Shown here: positions 50,048-58,406 of the stretch, one piece after another
How positions within the stretch are numbered: the first letter of the stretch is position 1
Layout: each line of letters opens with the position of its first letter
Source of the DNA: an uncultured Clostridia bacterium
GTDB lineage: Bacteria; Bacillota; Clostridia; Oscillospirales; Ruminococcaceae
Length of the DNA stretch: 64,000 nucleotides
Direction of reading: 5' to 3'
Assembly: GCA_947625155.1 (NCBI GenBank)
Contig: CANQNG010000001.1
Location: 39,148 to 103,147, forward strand
The notes under the pieces: generated by a model
The model's database searches: none
Seen by the model: the letters and a program-made list of their open reading frames with translations, nothing else
Told to the model about the DNA's origin: nothing
Made by a program: the position numbers and the translations under genes

Positions 50048-50593
50048 TCAGGTCGTTTCTTCGAGAACGGCATCGATGACATTCGGCGCATAGTCTGCCT
50101 GTAAAATGCCCTCTGCCGTTCCGATCAGCCCGTTTTCATCGTAGACATAGGCAACGCCTGTCACAATGAACACATACTTGTCCCCGTACAGCCAGACACC
50201 GTTTTTCAGTGTCTCTGCGTCTGTCATATCCTGTAAGCTGTACAGACCTGCGATCTCCTGCACGGAAAGCACTTCCACATCCTTGACAGACCCGGTCCGT
50301 ATATTAGGATGATGCAGATAACATGCTCCACCGCCGTCATAATAGTCCACATCCGCTGTGATACGGGCAATTCCACCGTCCGCAAGGGTAAGCGCATCCT
50401 GTGCAGCACAGCGCTCTACACCGATCTTGTATTCATCCATACTGTACAGCCCATCGCCGCAGCGGAACACCACCAGCTCCTCATTTTTGACCGTTGTGAT
50501 CTCCATATAGTCCGGATAAGGTGCATGATGTTTCGCTGTACACCCCGTCAGCAGCACCAGTACTGCCAGAACCGTACAAAATATCCTGTGCAT
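50048..50593 (-). CDS. Hypothetical lipoprotein
   Basis: The ATG at 50593 follows GGAGG. Lipobox MHRIFCTVLAVLVLLTGC. I recognise no domain. It lies immediately downstream of the VWA lipoprotein gene. Confidence 0.6.
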   Translation of the reverse strand: MHRIFCTVLAVLVLLTGCTAKHHAPYPDYMEITTVKNEELVVFRCGDGLYSMDEYKIGVERCAAQDALTLADGGIARITADVDYYDGGGACYLHHPNIRTGSVKDVEVLSVQEIAGLYSLQDMTDAETLKNGVWLYGDKYVFIVTGVAYVYDENGLIGTAEGILQADYAPNVIDAVLEETT

Positions 50594-50607
50594 ACTTCCT
50601 CCTGTCA

Positions 50608-52017
50608 TTACTGCCCGTCCCGGTATTCCCGGATGATGCGCACGATGATGTCATGCAGCTTTTCCACTTCATAGTCACCAATAATGGGTTCTAAGTGGGA
50701 ATCACCGATACCGGAATCGTCCGTCAGGAACACATAGCTCCCGTTCGTGCAGATCGCAGCCGCCCGCCCGAACAGTTCTGTATCCCGTGAACCGTTCGAG
50801 GATACGACCGGAACAAGGTGAATGCCCCGCCGGGAAGCCTCCGCAATGGCAGCCTGTAAGGTTTCCTCCTGCCCGGTATGGGGCGGTGCATCAAAGATCA
50901 GGAATGCGACCTTGGCGGCATCGTCCTGCCAGCCCGCATGAAACATCGTCTCCTTGAGGACTTCGGCAACGGCTTCCGGTTCGTCACCGCCGCCGTCAGC
51001 CGATTCGCCAGAGAGCTGGGAACGGATCGCACTCACATCATTCGTAAAATCGCCTGTCCTTGTGACATAGCTGTCACCGGCATCCTTGTAGAAGCTGACT
51101 GCCCATGTGGTGTCGGCATCGCCGACCTCCTCGGCAATGGCGCTGAAATCGCTTTGCAGATAGAGCATCTCATCTCCCATCGATCCGGTGGTATCGAGAA
51201 TGAACATCACCTGTGTCTTGTCAAAGAGGACAGGCGTGCTTTCGAGGGTGATCTCCGTCTGTCTGTCCGTACTTCCGCCGCCCTGTGAACCGCCGGAAGC
51301 GGCTGCCTCAATGTCGGCAGTCTGCTGTGAACCGCCTCTGGAGAGCCGTACCTGTACACCGCTGCGTGTGCTGTCGATCAGATAGGCGTGTCCGTCCTTG
51401 TCCGTCACGGATGTCCAGACCACATTCCCGGCAGCATCGAGGAGTTCGGCAGTCGCATTCGGCAGGACAGCCCCATCCGCCGCCTTGGCAGTTACAGCGA
51501 CCCGGCAAGTCGGATCAAGCCCGAAACTTGGGAAAGCAATGACACCCGTGTTGACCAGATTCGAGAAGAATCCCCAGTTCTCATGGTCGTTCCATTGCCC
51601 GGCAGTCAGCAGGCTTGCCTGTGCCTGAACGCCATTTTGCAGCTTGCTGTCCGGGTCTTCCACATCCGGTCCCACCACATACGGGTCTACTACATCCGGT
51701 CCTTCCGGAACGGGTGCATCTCCCATAGCTTCCCCCGGGGCAGCTTCAAGTCCGTCTGCGGGATCCTCTGCTTCACCGGCTGCTTCAAGGGCTTCGTCGC
51801 CATAGTCCTCCGCTTTCATCACAACGTCTCCGGCATCGCCCTCGGCATCCACAGCACCCTCAGCCTCTCCGTGCGGTGCAGGGGATGCCGCAGCACCGCC
51901 GACTTCCGCAGGTGCGAAACCGTTCGTGTAAGATCCATCGCTTTTCGTACTGCACGCTGTGCAGGAGAGCAGTGTCATTAAAATTGCCAGTGTGTAAGCT
52001 GTTTTCTGTAATTTCAT
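50608..52017 (-). CDS. Lipoprotein with von Willebrand factor type A (VWA) domain
   Basis: Trimmed from ORF 50608..52101 to the ATG at 52017, which follows AAGGAGG. Lipobox LAILMTLLSCTAC and a long acidic low-complexity region. The VWA domain has a MIDAS-like FILDTTGSMGDE motif. Confidence 0.75.
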   Translation of the reverse strand: MKLQKTAYTLAILMTLLSCTACSTKSDGSYTNGFAPAEVGGAAASPAPHGEAEGAVDAEGDAGDVVMKAEDYGDEALEAAGEAEDPADGLEAAPGEAMGDAPVPEGPDVVDPYVVGPDVEDPDSKLQNGVQAQASLLTAGQWNDHENWGFFSNLVNTGVIAFPSFGLDPTCRVAVTAKAADGAVLPNATAELLDAAGNVVWTSVTDKDGHAYLIDSTRSGVQVRLSRGGSQQTADIEAAASGGSQGGGSTDRQTEITLESTPVLFDKTQVMFILDTTGSMGDEMLYLQSDFSAIAEEVGDADTTWAVSFYKDAGDSYVTRTGDFTNDVSAIRSQLSGESADGGGDEPEAVAEVLKETMFHAGWQDDAAKVAFLIFDAPPHTGQEETLQAAIAEASRRGIHLVPVVSSNGSRDTELFGRAAAICTNGSYVFLTDDSGIGDSHLEPIIGDYEVEKLHDIIVRIIREYRDGQ

Positions 52018-52168
52018 ATCAATTCCTCCTTCATGCCCTTGTCTGGGCTTCTGTTGATCAATACGGATGAAGAAGGCAATTTGTATGGGGCAGATATGCA
52101 CAAAGTTTCCAATATGATCTTATATAAAATCGACAAATTCATGAAACCCACAGAAAGGAGCATCCTAA

Positions 52169-52714
52169 ATGATCTACTATACAGCAGACCCCCATTTTGG
52201 GCATGAAGCGATCATCCGCTTCTGTCACCGTCCATTTGCCGATGTGGAAGAAATGAACAGGGTACTTATGGAAAACTGGAACAGCATTGTGCAGGAAGAA
52301 GATGAAGTCTATCTGCTCGGCGATGTGTTCTTCAAGGGCAGACCGGAACAGATCCTGCCCCGTCTCAACGGCAAAAAGCATCTCATCATCGGCAACCATG
52401 ACAGGCGGCATCTACAGAAAGAGAATTTCAACAGGCATTTTGAGAGCATACAGGAATACCTCTGCATCGACGACAACGGACGGCGTGTGGTGCTGTTCCA
52501 TTACCCGATCTATGAATGGGACGGTTTTTTCCGGGGCAGCTATCATCTATACGGGCATGTCCACAACAGCGAGGTCAACCGCATTATGCTCCGGCAGGAG
52601 CGTGCTTTCAATGCAGGTGTTGACCTCAATGACTTCACGCCGCAGACACTGGACAGCCTTATCCGGCGGAAACCGTTTCTTTTGGAGCAGTTCTGTCCGG
52701 TCTTTCCGGAATGA
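52169..52714 (+). CDS. Metallophosphoesterase family protein
   Basis: 181 aa. Calcineurin-like motifs: DPHFGH, LLGDV, GNHD, GHVH. Confidence 0.8.
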   Translation: MIYYTADPHFGHEAIIRFCHRPFADVEEMNRVLMENWNSIVQEEDEVYLLGDVFFKGRPEQILPRLNGKKHLIIGNHDRRHLQKENFNRHFESIQEYLCIDDNGRRVVLFHYPIYEWDGFFRGSYHLYGHVHNSEVNRIMLRQERAFNAGVDLNDFTPQTLDSLIRRKPFLLEQFCPVFPE

Positions 52715-54194
52715 CCCCGTACAGCCGGAACAGGATCCGCTGCACCGCAAGATACAGCACACAGGCAAGCATGGCAAACAGCACCATACCCGGGATACTT
52801 CCGCCCGGCTGCACGTGCAGCAGCAGGAAGATCATACCAGCGCCCTGCGCCGCAAAGACTGCCGCAAACAGCGGGATCCCCAGCAGTCTGACCGGTTCGG
52901 GGCGCAGTTTTGTGCGCCGAAACACCAGCATCAGACGGCTGACGTTGCCGCAGATATTGCTTGCATAGTAGGAAAGCACGATGCCATAAAACCCGAACAG
53001 CGGGATAAAGACCAGCACGATCGAAATGCGTATCACATATTCGCAGAGGTAATTCAAGGAGGAAAACGTCTGTGCGCCGATGCCCTTGATGATGCTTTCT
53101 AAGACGATCTCCAGATAGATGAACGGCACGACCGGTGCAAGGAGAACGATCATATTCCCTGCCGCAGCACCGCCGCCGAGGAGAACGCCCAGTTCCTGCC
53201 CGAACAGCAGCATCATCATCGTGATGAACACCGCATAGACAATGGTCTGCCGGAGCGTTTTCTCCGTGAGTGCCCGGACACGTTCCTGCCGTCCGGCAGC
53301 GGTCTCCCTTGCAGTCTCGGTCACAAGGATACCTGCCAAGGAGCAGAGAATGGTAGACGGAAAGAACAGCGTCGGGATGATAATGGCTTCAAACAGCCCG
53401 AACTGACTGAATGCCTCCGCCGTGGAATTGCCCGCCTGCCGCAGGGTGATAGGTACGAGGGCATCATTGGCAGAGCTTAAAAAAGACGTCAGCGCCGAAC
53501 CCAGCATCACCGGAACGGCAAGCCGGATGTATTGCAGGAGAGAAACAGAAGTCTTTCCCGTTTTCGCAAGCGGACAGGACGGCAGAAAGCACAGCATGAA
53601 CAGCAAAGAAGCCCCCGCCCCGGCAATGGAGCTGACTGCCGTCATGGTACACAGGGCAGCCGGGCTTTCCGGCTTGTGCAGGAGCACTGTCCCTGCCATG
53701 CAGGCTGTCCGTACCAGAAATTCGATGCCGTCCGAAGCGGCACAGACTCCCGCCCGGCAGCAGGCGTTGAACCGCCCTTTGACACAGGCAGCGACCGTCA
53801 GCAGCGGCAGCGAAGCCGCCATCAGCCGCAGGGGCGAAGTCAGCTCCGGGCTTTTCAGGAACTGCACGCTGCACTGCGGTGCAAACAGTATCAGCACCCC
53901 TGCTGTGCAGAAACTCAGTACAAGGCTGACACCTGTGCAGTAGCCAAGCATTCTCTGCGGGTCACGCTGCCGTCTGCCAAGCTCCTCGGAGAGAAACCGG
54001 CTCACACACAGAAAGACATTTCCGCTTGCCGTCACAGAGGCAAGCCGAAAAAAAGAAGCCGTCAGCGTGAGTATCCCGATCGCTTCCGTGCCGAGCTGTG
54101 CCGTCATGAACACGTTCAGCAGCAGGGAAAGCCCGTCAAGCAGCATCTGAATGACAGTCAGCAGAATGGTGTCCCGTAAAATATTGCGCCGCAT
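52659..54194 (-). CDS. MOP-superfamily flippase (polysaccharide biosynthesis / MATE / SpoVB-like)
   Basis: The ATG at 54194 follows AAAGGGGGG. About 511 aa and roughly 14 predicted TM segments. The N-terminal pattern resembles Wzx/MurJ/SpoVB-type proteins. The 3' end overlaps the convergent phosphoesterase gene by 56 nt. Confidence 0.6.
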   Translation of the reverse strand: MRRNILRDTILLTVIQMLLDGLSLLLNVFMTAQLGTEAIGILTLTASFFRLASVTASGNVFLCVSRFLSEELGRRQRDPQRMLGYCTGVSLVLSFCTAGVLILFAPQCSVQFLKSPELTSPLRLMAASLPLLTVAACVKGRFNACCRAGVCAASDGIEFLVRTACMAGTVLLHKPESPAALCTMTAVSSIAGAGASLLFMLCFLPSCPLAKTGKTSVSLLQYIRLAVPVMLGSALTSFLSSANDALVPITLRQAGNSTAEAFSQFGLFEAIIIPTLFFPSTILCSLAGILVTETARETAAGRQERVRALTEKTLRQTIVYAVFITMMMLLFGQELGVLLGGGAAAGNMIVLLAPVVPFIYLEIVLESIIKGIGAQTFSSLNYLCEYVIRISIVLVFIPLFGFYGIVLSYYASNICGNVSRLMLVFRRTKLRPEPVRLLGIPLFAAVFAAQGAGMIFLLLHVQPGGSIPGMVLFAMLACVLYLAVQRILFRLYGVIPERPDRTAPKETVSAG

Positions 54195-54301
54195 GGCTGT
54201 CCCCCCTTTCAGTCCTGTTGGCATTTTATGCGAAAGCTTTGCGCATTAGACCGATAGCAGGGGCGGTTTGCATAAATTTCCGGAAAAACCTGTGCGCCCT
54301 A

Positions 54302-54330
54302 TTGACGAAACGGATTTTTTTCGGTATAAT
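54302..54330 (+). promoter_or_regulatory. Sigma-A type promoter of rpe and the rnf-like operon
   Basis: TTGACG (54302-54307), 17-nt spacer, TATAAT (54325-54330). Confidence 0.7.
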
Positions 54331-54380
54331 AGAATAAGGGGCGTATGTGCCCCGAAAAAGGAATTGACGGAGGTACTGTC

Positions 54381-55040
54381 TTGGAACAGAAAATTTCTGC
54401 CTCGCTTCTGAGTGCGGATATGCTGCATCTTGCGGATGCGCTGCACAGTCTGGAGCAGGCTGGTGTGGATATGCTGCATTTTGATGTCATGGACGGCTGC
54501 TTTGTGCCGAATATTTCTTTCGGACTGCCGGTACTCAAGGCATTGGCAAAGGCATCCTCCTTGTTTATGGATGTTCACTTGATGATCGAAGATCCCTGCT
54601 CGTATGTTAAAAATTTTGTGGAAGCAGGGGCAGATATGCTGACATTTCATCTGGAGAGCAGGAGCGACCCGTTCCGGACGATCCAAGCCATCCATGATGC
54701 CGGCTGTCAGGCAGGTATCTCCCTGAGACCGGCTACCCCTGCCAAAGCGCTCCTGCCGTTTCTGGACGAGCTGGACAGTATCCTTGTGATGACCGTAGAA
54801 CCCGGCTTCGGCGGACAGAGTTATCTCACAGACATGACCGCCAAGATCGCCGAAGTGCGCAGCATGATCGGCACACGGAAGATCCTGCTCTCGGCAGACG
54901 GCGGCATTTGTAAGGAAACAGCGCCCGCTGCGGCAAAGGCAGGAACGGATGTGCTTGTGGCAGGAAGCTGGCTGTTTGCGCAGCAGGATATGCGTGAAGC
55001 CGTGGCATGGCTGCGCCGCAGCGGGGAGGCATCCCTTTGA
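54381..55040 (+). CDS. rpe: Ribulose-phosphate 3-epimerase
   Basis: The ORF starts at 54345. I prefer the TTG at 54381, which lies 7 nt after GGAGG. ISASLLSADMLHLADAL..., HFDVMDGCFVPNISFG, HLMIEDP, MTVEPGFGGQ, ADGGI. Confidence 0.9.
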   Translation: MEQKISASLLSADMLHLADALHSLEQAGVDMLHFDVMDGCFVPNISFGLPVLKALAKASSLFMDVHLMIEDPCSYVKNFVEAGADMLTFHLESRSDPFRTIQAIHDAGCQAGISLRPATPAKALLPFLDELDSILVMTVEPGFGGQSYLTDMTAKIAEVRSMIGTRKILLSADGGICKETAPAAAKAGTDVLVAGSWLFAQQDMREAVAWLRRSGEASL

Positions 55041-55954
55041 ACCGATACAGGTCTGCACGCCCGATCCGCCGCCCGGAATACTGGGCTGTGGTGCTTTCGG
55101 TCGTGATCGCCGGGGTGTGCTTTTACGGCATACGGGCAGCGGCAATATACGGGCTGGCAGCGGTCACGGCGGTCGTGACAGACTTTGTCTGCCTGTTCCT
55201 AAAGGGAAAGTCCTACCGTGTGGTAGATCTCTCCAATATCGGCAATGCACTGATCTTGGCAATGCTGTTCCCGGCAAGTGTGCCGTATTCTATCGTGCTG
55301 CTGAGTACTGTATTTGCGGTAGGTGTCACGCATATTTTCGGCTACCGGCATGATCTGCTGTTTCCGCCGGCTGCGGCAGGGTATCTGTTTGCGGTGCTTT
55401 GCTGGCGGGATGAGGTGCTTCTGTGTCCGGCAGCAGGGGAGAGGCTCGCTTTGTTCGGCTCACGGGCAGAGGTCGCTGCTTCGTTCAGTGCGGAGGTAGA
55501 CCAGAATGCAGGTATCCGCACGAGTGCATTTGACATTCTGATCGGTGCTGTGCGGACACAGCTCGGCACGGGGTGTCTGCTCTTGCTGATAGTGGGGATC
55601 ATCGTGCTGGTACTGCGCAGGCAGCTGTCTTTCTGGGGCGTGTTGGGCTATTTCGTCGGTACAGTACTCATCGTACTTGCCTTCGGAGCGCCGCTGCAGG
55701 CGATGGCTGGCAATATGTTTTTATTTTCCATGCTGTTTCTGGTGGCTGATCCATGCGTGATGCCGGGCGGCGTGGTGACGGATCATGTCGCAGCTCTGGT
55801 GACAGGTATCGCAGCGGGGTTTCTGCTGGCGGAATATCAGTTAGAATATGCGCCGGTCACGGCAGTCATGCTGACATGTCCGATCTGGCAGATGCTGTAT
55901 CGATTTGAGAACGACCGTACCCGAACAGAGAGAAAGCAGGTGGAGACAGAATGA
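55037..55954 (+). CDS. Divergent RnfD/NqrB-family membrane protein
   Basis: The ORF starts at 55007. The likely start is the TTG at 55037, which lies 7 nt after GGGGAGG and overlaps the rpe stop. DLSNIGNALILAMLFPASVPYSIVLLSTVFAVGVTHIFG...FPPAAAGYLF and FSMLFLVADPCVMP line up with the conserved RnfD blocks (SAxxTGLLLAxxxPP...FAI..K..FGG.G.N.FNPA and FFM.TDP.T.P). Confidence 0.65.
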   Translation: MNRYRSARPIRRPEYWAVVLSVVIAGVCFYGIRAAAIYGLAAVTAVVTDFVCLFLKGKSYRVVDLSNIGNALILAMLFPASVPYSIVLLSTVFAVGVTHIFGYRHDLLFPPAAAGYLFAVLCWRDEVLLCPAAGERLALFGSRAEVAASFSAEVDQNAGIRTSAFDILIGAVRTQLGTGCLLLLIVGIIVLVLRRQLSFWGVLGYFVGTVLIVLAFGAPLQAMAGNMFLFSMLFLVADPCVMPGGVVTDHVAALVTGIAAGFLLAEYQLEYAPVTAVMLTCPIWQMLYRFENDRTRTERKQVETE

Positions 55955-56592
55955 GACCCGGAACATTTTCTGTCACGGACGGACTGTTCCGCCGCAACGC
56001 TGTGCTTTCGGAGGGCATGGTCATCGCCCCCATCGTGGTCTGCTGCGACACGCTGCACAAGGCGCTGCTGCTGTCTTTGGCATTTGCGGTCATTACGGCG
56101 GTGAGCGTGTTCGTTGGTTCGTTCTATCCAAAGAAGCTGCCCTATGCGGTGCGCATCATGCTGTATGCACTGACGGCTGCGGTCGTCTATATCCCGGCAG
56201 TGCTTCTCTGCGAATATATCAGCCCGGAAACCTATGCGGCATTGCGTTCCATGCAGATGCCCGGTACAGATCTTCCGGGAAATGCCTTTCTCTATCTGCC
56301 GCTGCTGACGGTGAATTCCTTCATCGTGCTGCACTCGGAGCTGTATTTCTACCGCCTGCGCAGAACACTGATGACGGGGGCGCTGCTGTTTCATATCGCC
56401 GGATCCTGTCTGACAGCGTGTGTGGCAGGCTGCATCCGGGAGGTACTGGCATACGGGAGCCTGTCCGGTCATGCGGTGGATATGCCGCTTTTGCTGCGGG
56501 GCTTTGCTGCACCGTGGGGCGGCTTTATCCTATTGGGCGTGTTGTGCGCCCTGCACCGTGCGCTGTTCGCACAGAAACAGGAGGAAGCATGA
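55951..56592 (+). CDS. Divergent RnfE/NqrD-family membrane protein
   Basis: 213 aa with ATGA overlap to the upstream gene. DGLFRRNAVLSEGMVIAPIVV... aligns with the RnfE N-terminus GLWKNNxxLVQLLGLCPLLAV. LYLPLLTVNSFIV aligns with IFIPLIVTNCIVV. Confidence 0.6.
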   Translation: MRPGTFSVTDGLFRRNAVLSEGMVIAPIVVCCDTLHKALLLSLAFAVITAVSVFVGSFYPKKLPYAVRIMLYALTAAVVYIPAVLLCEYISPETYAALRSMQMPGTDLPGNAFLYLPLLTVNSFIVLHSELYFYRLRRTLMTGALLFHIAGSCLTACVAGCIREVLAYGSLSGHAVDMPLLLRGFAAPWGGFILLGVLCALHRALFAQKQEEA

Positions 56593-57215
56593 ACTGGCTG
56601 TTGACTGTGCTGGTGTCGCTGCTGCTGGAGAATTTGATCTTTACACAGGCACTTGGCACGAGCACCTTGATGGCTGCCGCCCGGAACCGTTCGAGACTGC
56701 CGCTGTTGGCGGCATTGATGACGCTCTTTTCTGCACTGGCAAGCATGTTCCTCCAACTGCTGTATTTTGGGCTGGGGCTTGCGGCACTACCGGAAGAAAT
56801 GCGTCGTCTGGTGCAGCCGTTATTGTACACGGCAGTCGTCAGTCTGCTTTACGGTGCAGTGCTGCTGGTGCTGTACCGCTTTCTGGGAGAGCGCTCTGCC
56901 GCTTTCAAAAAATATGTACACCTTTCGGCATTCAACTGTGCTGTTATGGGTACACTGTATCTGGCGTTCCCCGCTGACCGGGACGATCTGAGTTTCCGTT
57001 TTCTGGGAAATGTGCTGGCTGACCGGCACACGCTCACAGGTGCGATGCTGTTCGGGCTGCAGGAGGGACTTGGCTTCCTGCTGGCAGCCGTGCTGATCTC
57101 AGCAGTCAGGGAACGTCTCTATGCCAAAGAAGTCCCGGCAGCTTTCCGGGGGTATCCGGCAGCGATCGTGTTCATCGGGCTTTTATCGATGGCGGTCTAT
57201 TCCATTGTGCAGTAG
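56589..57215 (+). CDS. Divergent RnfA/NqrE-family membrane protein
   Basis: 208 aa with ATGA overlap to the upstream gene. LLENLIFTQALGTSTLM aligns with LVNNFVLxxFLGLCPFMG. SAFNCAVMG aligns with ITTNCAVLG. VRERLYAKEVPAAFRGYPAAIVFIGLLSMA aligns with IRERLxxxDVPxxFRGxxIALITAGLMSLAF. Confidence 0.65.
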   Translation: MNWLLTVLVSLLLENLIFTQALGTSTLMAAARNRSRLPLLAALMTLFSALASMFLQLLYFGLGLAALPEEMRRLVQPLLYTAVVSLLYGAVLLVLYRFLGERSAAFKKYVHLSAFNCAVMGTLYLAFPADRDDLSFRFLGNVLADRHTLTGAMLFGLQEGLGFLLAAVLISAVRERLYAKEVPAAFRGYPAAIVFIGLLSMAVYSIVQ

Positions 57216-57260: not shown

Positions 57261-58406
57261 ATGAAATTCAAACCGAAGGGACGGAAGATCTATCGGGAAA
57301 AGACCCGTTTTGAGCGCCTGCGTGCCTTCCGGAGCAATACAGGTGCCATTTTGGTAACAGTGCTGTGTGCTGGCGTTCTGGGCTTTGTGGGGTACAGTGC
57401 CGGAGGACCTGTGCTGCGCTTTTTACAGGAGCAGAATGTGCTTTCTGCCCCGGAGAAACACACCGAAACGACAGAGGCAGCACAGACAGCACTGCCTGAG
57501 ACCGTACAGTCCGCAGAACTGACAGAGCCAGCTACAGAAGTCCCCGCACCGCCGCAAGAAGCTCCCACCGATCCGCAGTCCGATGCTGTGATGCTGGAAA
57601 TGCGTGGGGTAGAGCTTGCCACGGATGCGCTCGCTACAGAAGAAACGCTTGCGGCAGCGCTGAATGCCGTTCCGGCAGGGACGACCCATGTGCTCGTGCC
57701 GCTGAAAACAGAGGGCGGAACGATCTACTTCGCCTCTGCCAATGCGGATGTCAAGCGCACGGATGCCGTTCAGGCATTCCTGCCGATCGGCACGATCTAT
57801 GATGCGATCCTGAAAAAAGGCTTTATCCCGGTCGCTGTCATCAATACCCTCGAGGATGATCTGTATCCGCAGAGCTTTATGGATGCGGCATACCGCATAG
57901 CAGGCAGCGGAGACTACTGGCTGGATGCACCGCCTGAAGAGGGCGGCAAGCCGTGGATGTCACCGTTCAGCGAACTGGCAAGACAGTACCTTGCAGAGCT
58001 GACCTATGAGATCTATATGACCGGATTTCAGGAATTTGTCTGCGAGGGGCTGACGTTTCCAGCATTTACAGACGAGCAGCTCGCACAGCTCGATCCACGC
58101 TGCGGGGCAGCCGACCGTTACACCGCTTTGGCGGATACCGTGGAGCAGATGCAGGAGGCTGCCCCGAATGCGACCTTCTATATCGGGGCAGATGGCAGAC
58201 GTATCCTCAACAATGAGAGCGATGTGCTTTCCGCCGCCCAAACGCTGCAGATCGCGGGTGTGTTGCTGACGGTGGATGATGTCACTTTTGCCAATGCAGA
58301 TCTGCTGCGTTCCGCAGCCGGAACGGTCCCCTGTGTGCTTGCGTGGAAAACGGCAGTGCCGACAGGAGAAACGTCCTATGTGCAGGTGATGGAAAATGAG
58401 AACTGA
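57261..58406 (+). CDS. Hypothetical membrane-anchored extracytoplasmic protein
   Basis: 381 aa. Basic N-terminus, one TM helix (ILVTVLCAGVLGFVGY), a Pro/Thr/Glu linker, then a globular domain of about 270 aa. I cannot assign a family with confidence; a TIM-barrel glycoside-hydrolase-like fold is possible. Confidence 0.5.
   Translation: MKFKPKGRKIYREKTRFERLRAFRSNTGAILVTVLCAGVLGFVGYSAGGPVLRFLQEQNVLSAPEKHTETTEAAQTALPETVQSAELTEPATEVPAPPQEAPTDPQSDAVMLEMRGVELATDALATEETLAAALNAVPAGTTHVLVPLKTEGGTIYFASANADVKRTDAVQAFLPIGTIYDAILKKGFIPVAVINTLEDDLYPQSFMDAAYRIAGSGDYWLDAPPEEGGKPWMSPFSELARQYLAELTYEIYMTGFQEFVCEGLTFPAFTDEQLAQLDPRCGAADRYTALADTVEQMQEAAPNATFYIGADGRRILNNESDVLSAAQTLQIAGVLLTVDDVTFANADLLRSAAGTVPCVLAWKTAVPTGETSYVQVMENEN

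Follow-up and report, generated by a model that had tools for sequence, protein, structure and literature searches.

A conserved Rnf-derived D-E-A membrane protein module with altered redox-cofactor sites at the rpe locus of Oscillospirales

Gene organization at the rpe locus

The window analyzed here is a 64,000-nt stretch of contig CANQNG010000001.1, to which all coordinates refer, and its sequence is contained in rabbit-gut metagenomes. Within it, directly behind the ribulose-phosphate 3-epimerase gene rpe, lie three genes, designated D', E' and A', whose products are homologous to the membrane subunits RnfD/NqrB, RnfE/NqrD and RnfA/NqrE of the Rnf and Nqr complexes. The trio is maintained by selection with its cofactor sites altered, and we consider it to be a functional, non-redox derivative of Rnf (probability about 0.85). 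The features of the locus are as follows.

54302-54330, + strand: putative Sigma-70-like promoter ahead of rpe (TTGACG-17-TATAAT, 11 of 12 matches; consensus scan only)
54345-55040, + strand: rpe, ribulose-phosphate 3-epimerase (PF00834, 231 bits; TIGR01163, 251 bits against a cut-off of 212.6)
55037-55954, + strand: D', polytopic protein of the RnfD/NqrB fold, 305 amino acids, TTG start (PF03116)
55951-56592, + strand: E', RnfE/NqrD-like protein, 213 amino acids (PF02508)
56589-57215, + strand: A', RnfA/NqrE-like protein, 208 amino acids (PF02508)
57261-58406, + strand: DUF4015 protein, 381 amino acids, single-pass and glycoside hydrolase-like (PF13200)

An earlier account of this DNA, made from the letters without database searches and referred to below as the sequence-only reading, described three translationally coupled genes, the first of them overlapping rpe; the open reading frames and overlaps were verified. 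The rpe stop and D' start codons share the tetranucleotide TTGA, with a GGGGAGG Shine-Dalgarno sequence 9-10 nt upstream, and ATGA overlaps join D' to E' and E' to A', both accompanied by a Shine-Dalgarno sequence of their own. A consensus-type scan found no convincing + strand terminator from rpe to the DUF4015 gene, which is followed in the window by hprK, murB, rapZ and whiA. The rpe, D', E' and A' genes run in the same direction as a single compact unit, preceded by a strong promoter-like site; from its sequence, this site is likely the start of the transcription unit, to which the DUF4015 gene probably also belongs. Exact RNA contigs from one metatranscriptome cover 56520-56683, across the E'/A' junction, and 57917-58098, inside the DUF4015 gene, giving weak but positive evidence that the locus is transcribed. 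The transcriptome of Caproicibacterium lactatifermentans was also considered as a source of expression data and was set aside, as the rpe locus of this species has no trio.

Homology to Rnf and Nqr and the state of the cofactor sites

Public annotation labels the trio genes as "electron transport complex subunit D/E" or "Rnf-Nqr domain containing protein". The alignment of the trio with RnfD/NqrB, RnfE/NqrD and RnfA/NqrE, which the sequence-only reading had proposed, was borne out by Pfam, with D' matching PF03116 at 89.1 bits (E 4e-25; gathering score 27.7) and E' and A' matching PF02508 at 54.5 bits (E 2e-14) and 72.7 bits (E 5e-20), respectively (gathering score 23.8). The NCBIfam rnfD/E/A and nqrB/D/E models gave only 16-52 bits against cut-offs of 184-415 (rnfD 45.6 against 207, rnfE 24.6 against 213 and rnfA 52 against 229; nqrB 18.6, nqrD 15.6-19.6 and nqrE 41.3 bits against 235-414). 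With Pfam matches above the gathering scores and NCBIfam scores far below cut-off, the three proteins are therefore members of these families, not equivalogs. Among solved structures, the RnfD, RnfE and RnfA chains from Clostridium tetanomorphum, Acetobacterium woodii and Azotobacter vinelandii matched best, and NqrB, NqrD and NqrE came next. A family profile of E' matched the solved RnfE chains 7zc6_E at 99 bits and 9eri_E at 85 bits, and the family is therefore a well-defined sister of RnfE rather than noise. For D', an AlphaFold model (predicted local distance difference test (pLDDT) score 74, predicted TM-score 0.74), with low confidence over a long stretch only in the extracytoplasmic loop 130-179, gave TM-scores of 0.74-0.78 to RnfD (9eri_D, 7zc6_D and 8ahx_D) and 0.68-0.74 to NqrB. 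The next fold class, the urea transporters, scored 0.42, and the fold distantly resembles urea and ammonia channels. D' is a true homologue of RnfD/NqrB, E' of RnfE/NqrD and A' of RnfA/NqrE.

In A. woodii, the intramembrane [2Fe-2S] cluster is held by RnfA C25 and C113 together with RnfE C25 and C108, riboflavin is bound by RnfD N123 and D249, and mutants of the cluster cysteines are inactive (bioRxiv 10.1101/2024.06.21.599731). Residue numbers throughout are those of A. woodii. The cysteine positions were mapped by HMMER alignment to solved structures (for A', 8ahx_A, 9eri_A, 7zc6_A and 7xk3_E), and D' was aligned by family profile to 7zc6_D and 9eri_D, with the following result.

RnfA C25: Ser in A' (LGTST against LGICP)
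RnfA C113: Cys kept in A' (FNCAV)
RnfE C25: Ala in E' (VIAP against GMCP)
RnfE C108: Ser in E' (VNS against VNC)
RnfD N123: Pro in D', invariant in the clade of the window (FPPAA)
RnfD D249: Asp kept as D238 of D', in at least 90% of sequences
RnfD F245, the gating residue: Phe kept in D'

The four cluster positions thus read Ser, Cys, Ala and Ser, a pattern shared by about 30 species. The claim that three of the four ligands are gone, with the FNCAV cysteine of A' alone remaining, had been drawn from a manual alignment, and the alignments to the solved structures agree with it and reveal no shift. In A', RnfA P107 and T110/T111 are additionally replaced by His and Ala/Phe. The (S/T)GA(T/S) motif recognized by ApbE was found neither in D' nor in 24 homologues nor in the divergent members, and in the family-profile alignment the position of the flavinylated Thr (TTATPL) is occupied by variable residues beside an invariant Ser (consensus xSLSA). 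The missing flavinylation motif reported earlier is therefore upheld, whereas the accompanying remark that this part of D' is shortened carries little weight, since D' has 305 amino acids against 310 in clostridial RnfD and the gaps are small. Taken together, D'E'A' departs from a functional Rnf or Nqr in every defining feature that could be tested, namely subunit set, cysteines, flavinylation motif, riboflavin ligand and equivalog scores. On the aligned residues, Rnf-style passage of electrons across the membrane is predicted to be impossible for this module.

Several further residues in these regions were noted. Ser149 of D' (55481-55483) is invariant and lies within 1-2 positions of the site of the flavinylated Thr of RnfD; as a cryptic flavinylation site it is unsupported, its flanking residues being a mismatch to the ApbE motif. 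Near the former cluster site, the clade of the window has two Cys that are invariant, together with two His; these are contributed by E' (the His of VLHSE and an extra conserved Cys four residues past the motif Pro, termed P+4) and by A' (the Cys and His of HLSAFNC). These residues were rejected as a new metal site at the level of the family, given that the P+4 Cys is present in 17 of 136 E'-like relatives, and so is not conserved family-wide, and that A' of two distant loci, L038 and L041, has no Cys at the C113 position. The sub-clade of the window also carries loop insertions of ~15-25 residues in E' (56235-56300, SPETYAALRSMQMPGTDLPGNAF) and A' (56955-57030, PADRDDLSFRFLGNVLADRHTL), which are absent or different in other members.

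Conservation, gene neighborhood and distant relatives

A scan of one genome per GTDB species yielded 31 loci, 28 of which contained the trio; these belong to metagenome-assembled genomes of uncultured Oscillospiraceae, Ruminococcus or Clostridia from the guts of rabbits, ruminants and other hosts. Wherever the contig reaches, the gene order in these loci is rpe-D'-E'-A'-DUF4015-hprK-murB-rapZ-whiA, and the cofactor-site substitutions are identical in every species, including the divergent loci L027-L031 (27-42% identical). Cross-species identity (D' 45-59%, E' 57-70%, A' 48-57%) is similar to that of rpe and murB, and 45 positions of D' are invariant among 24 homologues. Ratios of nonsynonymous to synonymous substitution (dN/dS), determined by the Nei-Gojobori method between the window and its closest relative, L004, were 0.20 for D', 0.08 for E' and 0.16 for A', compared with 0.12 for rpe, 0.14 for murB and 0.18 for the DUF4015 gene. 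An exhaustive phmmer search of 1.84 billion representative proteins with E' as the query returned 360 clusters at E <= 1e-3 and 110 at E <= 1e-10. The 150 best relatives were taken, and among the 136 that could be scored at both cysteine columns, 121 lacked both cysteines, 15 had C25 only and none had both. The trio is maintained by selection in hundreds of lineages. The label "orphan" given to it by the sequence-only reading does not hold, as it sits in a conserved module, rpe-D'-E'-A'(-DUF4015), and in a large Oscillospirales family; "degenerate" is not to be taken to mean decay, the dN/dS values being 0.08-0.20.

A subgroup of E'-like relatives of 300-545 amino acids (P0257, P0275, P0227, P0213 and others) has long disordered tails rich in Pro, Glu and Lys; those of P0257 and P0275 share a short terminal motif (...ELExLMxxSLDDII...). 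This subgroup mostly keeps G(L/I)CP, with P0227 and P0213 as exceptions, and has NS or NP plus a Cys 6-7 residues further on ("xCE") in place of the NC motif, P0213 having neither. Fused domains in these proteins were examined as a clue to function and discarded, the tails being disordered and charged and without any Pfam domain.

Wherever a locus includes the upstream side of the Rnf-derived block, rpe is found just ahead of it. No rnfC, rnfG or rnfB gene was found in the 64-kb window; tblastn with four RnfC-like proteins gave no match to the window or to the flanking sequences of L002-L031. An RnfG-like flavin mononucleotide (FMN) carrier or RnfB-type gene is absent from all of 40 locus tables. 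Absence of these three genes beside the trio, as first noted for the window, is thus confirmed for it and, over about 10 kb, for the related loci of about 30 species. The neighbors named at that time, rpe upstream and a single-pass protein downstream, were also correct, except that the latter is not a mere hypothetical protein but the DUF4015 protein.

A profile search brought in named cultured relatives. Zongyangia hominis and Acetanaerobacterium elongatum have the order rpe-(opposite-strand mecA)-RnfC-like-D'-E'-A'-DUF4015, and Candidatus Soleaferrea massiliensis has the same order with no mecA; the genes flanking the block are unrelated among the three. Their RnfC-like protein (C', 399-420 amino acids) has an SLBB domain and two CxxCxxCxxxCP (4Fe-4S) motifs, with a Complex1_51K (FMN/NADH) match recorded only for Soleaferrea. 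In these organisms, D' keeps the riboflavin-site motif GGLGNNxFNPA and is without the flavinylation motif, E' is without a cluster cysteine, and A' has one or none. Between rpe and the trio, opposite-strand mecA and C' are found in L038 and L039, and C' only in L040. L041 has rpe-D'-E'-A'-DUF4015 with other flanks, and L042 has rpe-D'-E'-A' without the DUF4015 gene. In L035 (6306-9145) and L037 (6273-9116), the order is rpe-DUF4015-hprK-murB-rapZ-whiA with no trio, and the trio block was therefore gained or lost as a unit at the rpe/DUF4015 junction. Sugar genes occur nearby in several loci: Aldolase_II, FGGY and Fucose_iso in L002, L003 and L036, FGGY in L037, and transketolase, FGGY and RbsD_FucU in L038.

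C'D'E'A' looks like the older form of the module. In the simplest history, a clostridial-type rnfCDGEAB operon would have lost G, B and the A/E cluster to give C'D'E'A', after which the lineage of the window would have lost C' and the riboflavin-site Asn to give D'E'A', with some lineages losing the whole block. Throughout this history, the Rnf-derived block would have stayed beside rpe and, usually, the DUF4015 gene.

A second truncated Rnf-derived cluster was observed in Ruminococcaceae (YAD3003, RUG13376 and RUG13477), adjoining rpoD (L034:8415-13416, also L032 and L033). It encodes a full-length RnfC (Complex1_51K, RnfC_N, 2x4Fe-4S), an RnfD-like protein (PF03116, 166 bits, no SGAT motif) and two proteins with no Pfam family, one of 450 amino acids with a single transmembrane helix and one polytopic of 382 amino acids; E, A, G and B are absent from it.

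On the other side of rpe in the window, and divergent from it, lies a gene for a 521-amino-acid Polysacc_synt/MatE (MurJ/SpoVB-like) flippase (52659-54224, - strand). Flippase homologues are found upstream of rpe in many related loci, at times with an Aldolase_II/FGGY/fucose-isomerase block between. Further along the - strand are genes for a 497-amino-acid protein with an N-terminal signal/lipobox-like segment, an acidic low-complexity region rich in Ala, Glu, Asp and Pro, and a VWA domain (50608-52101), and, after it, a lipoprotein-like open reading frame of 186 amino acids without a Pfam match (50048-50608).

The DUF4015 protein of the window matched PF13200 at 38.4 bits (cut-off 27). It comprises a conserved basic N-terminus (KGRKIYR), one transmembrane helix, a low-confidence disordered linker and an extracytoplasmic α/β TIM barrel (AlphaFold pLDDT 85.6). 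Foldseek matches of the barrel, with E values of 1e-9 to 1e-5, were to Cthe_0052, GH66 dextranases, GH191 α-galactosaminidases (including TM1410) and the PelA hydrolase domain; as judged by this model, the protein is a probable surface-anchored glycan hydrolase. Its gene follows A' in L002-L031 and L038-L041. The N-terminus and transmembrane helix are the most conserved non-catalytic parts, with I10, Y11, G44 and P50 invariant in 35 sequences. DUF4015 domains elsewhere are fused to YkyA domains, regulators of cell-wall deacetylases (PMC12700454), which is also the only mention of DUF4015 in the literature searched. Adjacency of the DUF4015 gene was considered as proof of a partnership with the trio and not accepted as such, being weakened by the trio-less rpe-DUF4015 loci and L042.

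Possible functions and relation to known systems

The Rnf-derived, repurposed nature of the trio and its unsuitability as a redox-driven pump, both proposed by the sequence-only reading, stand on the family-wide loss of cofactor sites, the absence of RnfC, RnfG and RnfB at the locus, and purifying selection. For what the module does instead, the residues of the ion path are informative. In A. woodii, the RnfE R67-E115 ion pair forms the cytoplasmic Na+ entry and N107 belongs to a buried Na+ site; mutation of these residues impairs growth or activity, and the roles of the Na+-path residues rest on mutagenesis and molecular dynamics (bioRxiv 10.1101/2024.06.21.599731). RnfA and RnfE are described as an antiparallel, alternating-access pair with inward and outward states, likened by the authors to ion/solute symporters (PMC12174285). 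The ion path itself is debated, being placed either through RnfA/E (bioRxiv 10.1101/2024.06.21.599731) or through NqrB/RnfD (PMC12174285). Equivalents of RnfE R67, N107 and E115 are kept in E', and equivalents of RnfA Y105 and N112, which line the A. woodii Na+ path, are kept in A'. Among the 136 E'-like representatives, the R67 equivalent is R or K in 124, the E115 equivalent is E or D in 106, and the N107 equivalent is N or D in 104. A translocator is therefore favored over a mere scaffold, which amends the earlier suggestion of a "scaffold, channel or transporter".

Since the ion-pair and Asn positions and the antiparallel A/E pair appear to be kept, we tentatively propose, at less than even odds, that D'E'A' may be a redox-independent translocator of Na+ or H+, or an ion-coupled solute translocator. 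The complex would no longer move electrons; the A'/E' heterodimer, retaining the antiparallel arrangement and working by alternating access, would move Na+ or H+ down its gradient, either by itself or with a small solute coupled to it, and D' would be the third membrane partner, structural or channel. The older module would have had an RnfC-like Fe-S subunit on the cytoplasmic side, which the clade of the window would have lost. A role in carbohydrate handling at the cell envelope is suggested by the fixed place of the trio after Rpe (cytoplasmic pentose-phosphate metabolism) and before a surface glycosidase-like protein, with pentose/fucose catabolic genes often adjacent. More doubtful is the extended proposal of an undescribed class of membrane machine, an Rnf/Nqr ion core freed from electron transfer that would run on or dissipate a Na+/H+ gradient for import of sugar-derived solutes or for powering or gating the DUF4015 glycan hydrolase.

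A number of points weigh against this interpretation. Transport is deduced solely from the retained residues and the behavior of the parent enzymes, and these residues may have been kept for folding alone. The absence of rnfC, rnfG and rnfB applies at the level of the locus, in the window and its relatives. The RNA support consists of two low-depth metatranscriptome contigs for which DNA carry-over is possible. Synteny is found largely within one bacterial order and is perhaps partly due to common descent, and rpe is probably the housekeeping copy. Association with DUF4015 is not obligatory, as L042 has the trio without it, and L035 and L037 have rpe and the DUF4015 gene without the trio.

As the main alternative, though an unlikely one, D'E'A' would transport nothing and serve as a membrane scaffold or transducer that anchors, positions or switches the DUF4015 hydrolase, with the transmembrane helix of the latter in the place of RnfG. 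Such a role would resemble, by analogy only, that of FtsEX, which controls peptidoglycan hydrolases. The DUF4015 gene comes directly after A' in almost every locus, also in distant loci whose flanks are unrelated, and the protein is like RnfG a type-II single-pass protein with an outside domain and has the highly conserved cytoplasmic N-terminus and helix described above; murB and the MurJ/SpoVB-like flippase as neighbors would also fit, as would the YkyA fusions (PMC12700454). However, the same DUF4015 N-terminus is kept in L035 and L037, relatives with no trio at the locus, L042 has the trio alone, and the R67, E115 and N107 equivalents would not be needed by a pure scaffold.

Continued redox function, either with RnfC, RnfG and RnfB or other electron carriers encoded elsewhere or through a new metal centre formed by the remaining Cys and His, is very improbable. 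The locus-level scope of the rnfC/G/B absence leaves room for it, an RnfC-like subunit with both 4Fe-4S motifs intact persists in the deeper relatives, as does the GGLGNNxFNPA motif of D', and the clade of the window has the invariant Cys pair and the two His described above. Against these stand the loss of three of four cluster ligands, the flavinylated Thr motif missing from all members, the invariant Pro at N123 in the clade of the window, an RnfG-like FMN carrier in 0 of 40 loci, the inactivity of A. woodii cluster-cysteine mutants (bioRxiv 10.1101/2024.06.21.599731), and the restricted occurrence of the extra Cys and His (P+4 Cys in 17 of 136; no C113 Cys in A' of L038 and L041). Decay of a duplicated rnf operon into a non-functional remnant, to which the loss of cofactor ligands and three subunits and the scores far below NCBIfam cut-offs might point, is effectively excluded by intact reading frames with preserved overlapping start/stop codons and Shine-Dalgarno sites, dN/dS values in the range of rpe and murB, 45-70% cross-species identity with dozens of invariant positions, 360 representative clusters and the RNA contigs.

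As energy converters, Rnf and Nqr hold a central place in anaerobes and pathogens, and a conserved core without redox centers shows that the membrane core has a selectable function by itself. D'E'A' as a non-redox derivative provides a simple setting in which the passage of ions or solutes can be studied apart from electron transfer and, if it is indeed an uncoupled Rnf core, could decide whether ions cross the RnfA/E pair or RnfD/NqrB. In evolutionary terms, full Rnf, C'D'E'A' and D'E'A' form a stepwise series, comparable to the way in which NqrA lost its cofactors. With the present annotation, an Rnf complex, full or partial, may be attributed in error to rumen and gut Oscillospiraceae when their metabolism is reconstructed. 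In the literature searched (one full-text collection), neither an Rnf D-E-A module lacking the cysteines nor a link between such a module and rpe or DUF4015 was found described.

Compared with Rnf (RnfCDGEAB; C. tetanomorphum 7ZC6, A. woodii 9ERI), the D-E-A order of the trio is that of clostridial rnfCDGEAB minus C, G and B. The N-terminus of E' is basic and A' opens with a transmembrane helix, as in the antiparallel RnfE/RnfA pair, and the equivalents of RnfE R67, N107 and E115 and of RnfA Y105 and N112 are shared. The trio differs in having one of the four [2Fe-2S] cysteines, no covalent-FMN motif, Pro at N123 and no C, G or B gene at the locus, and in forming a unit with rpe and a glycosidase-like gene instead of genes for electron transfer.

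In relation to Na+-NQR (NqrABCDEF, Vibrio cholerae), D' matches NqrB (TM-score 0.68-0.74) and E' and A' match NqrD and NqrE. Na+-NQR is a redox pump in which the NqrD/E [2Fe-2S] cluster, riboflavin and the two covalent FMNs are all retained, whereas in the trio the [2Fe-2S] ligands, the FMN motif and one riboflavin ligand are lost or altered, and no NqrA, NqrC or NqrF gene is found at the trio locus. NqrA, a cofactor-free homologue of RnfC (PMC12174285), is a precedent for cofactor loss within the superfamily, yet it sits in a redox-active complex.

A further comparison is with the Zongyangia, Acetanaerobacterium and Soleaferrea clusters, whose E' is 28-33% identical (BLASTP) and carries no NCBI label beyond "Rnf-Nqr domain containing protein", and which have the same order after rpe and DUF4015 downstream. 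As in the window, their A/E cysteines and FMN motif are lost, but they keep C' and the GGLGNNxFNPA motif of D', neither of which is present in the clade of the window. Ion-coupled secondary transporters, with broken core helices and alternating access, are a functional analogy drawn for RnfA/E (PMC12174285); the trio differs from them in having no sequence or fold relationship to any known transporter family. The trio is best described as an Rnf/Nqr-derived variant with a realistic chance of being a new functional class.

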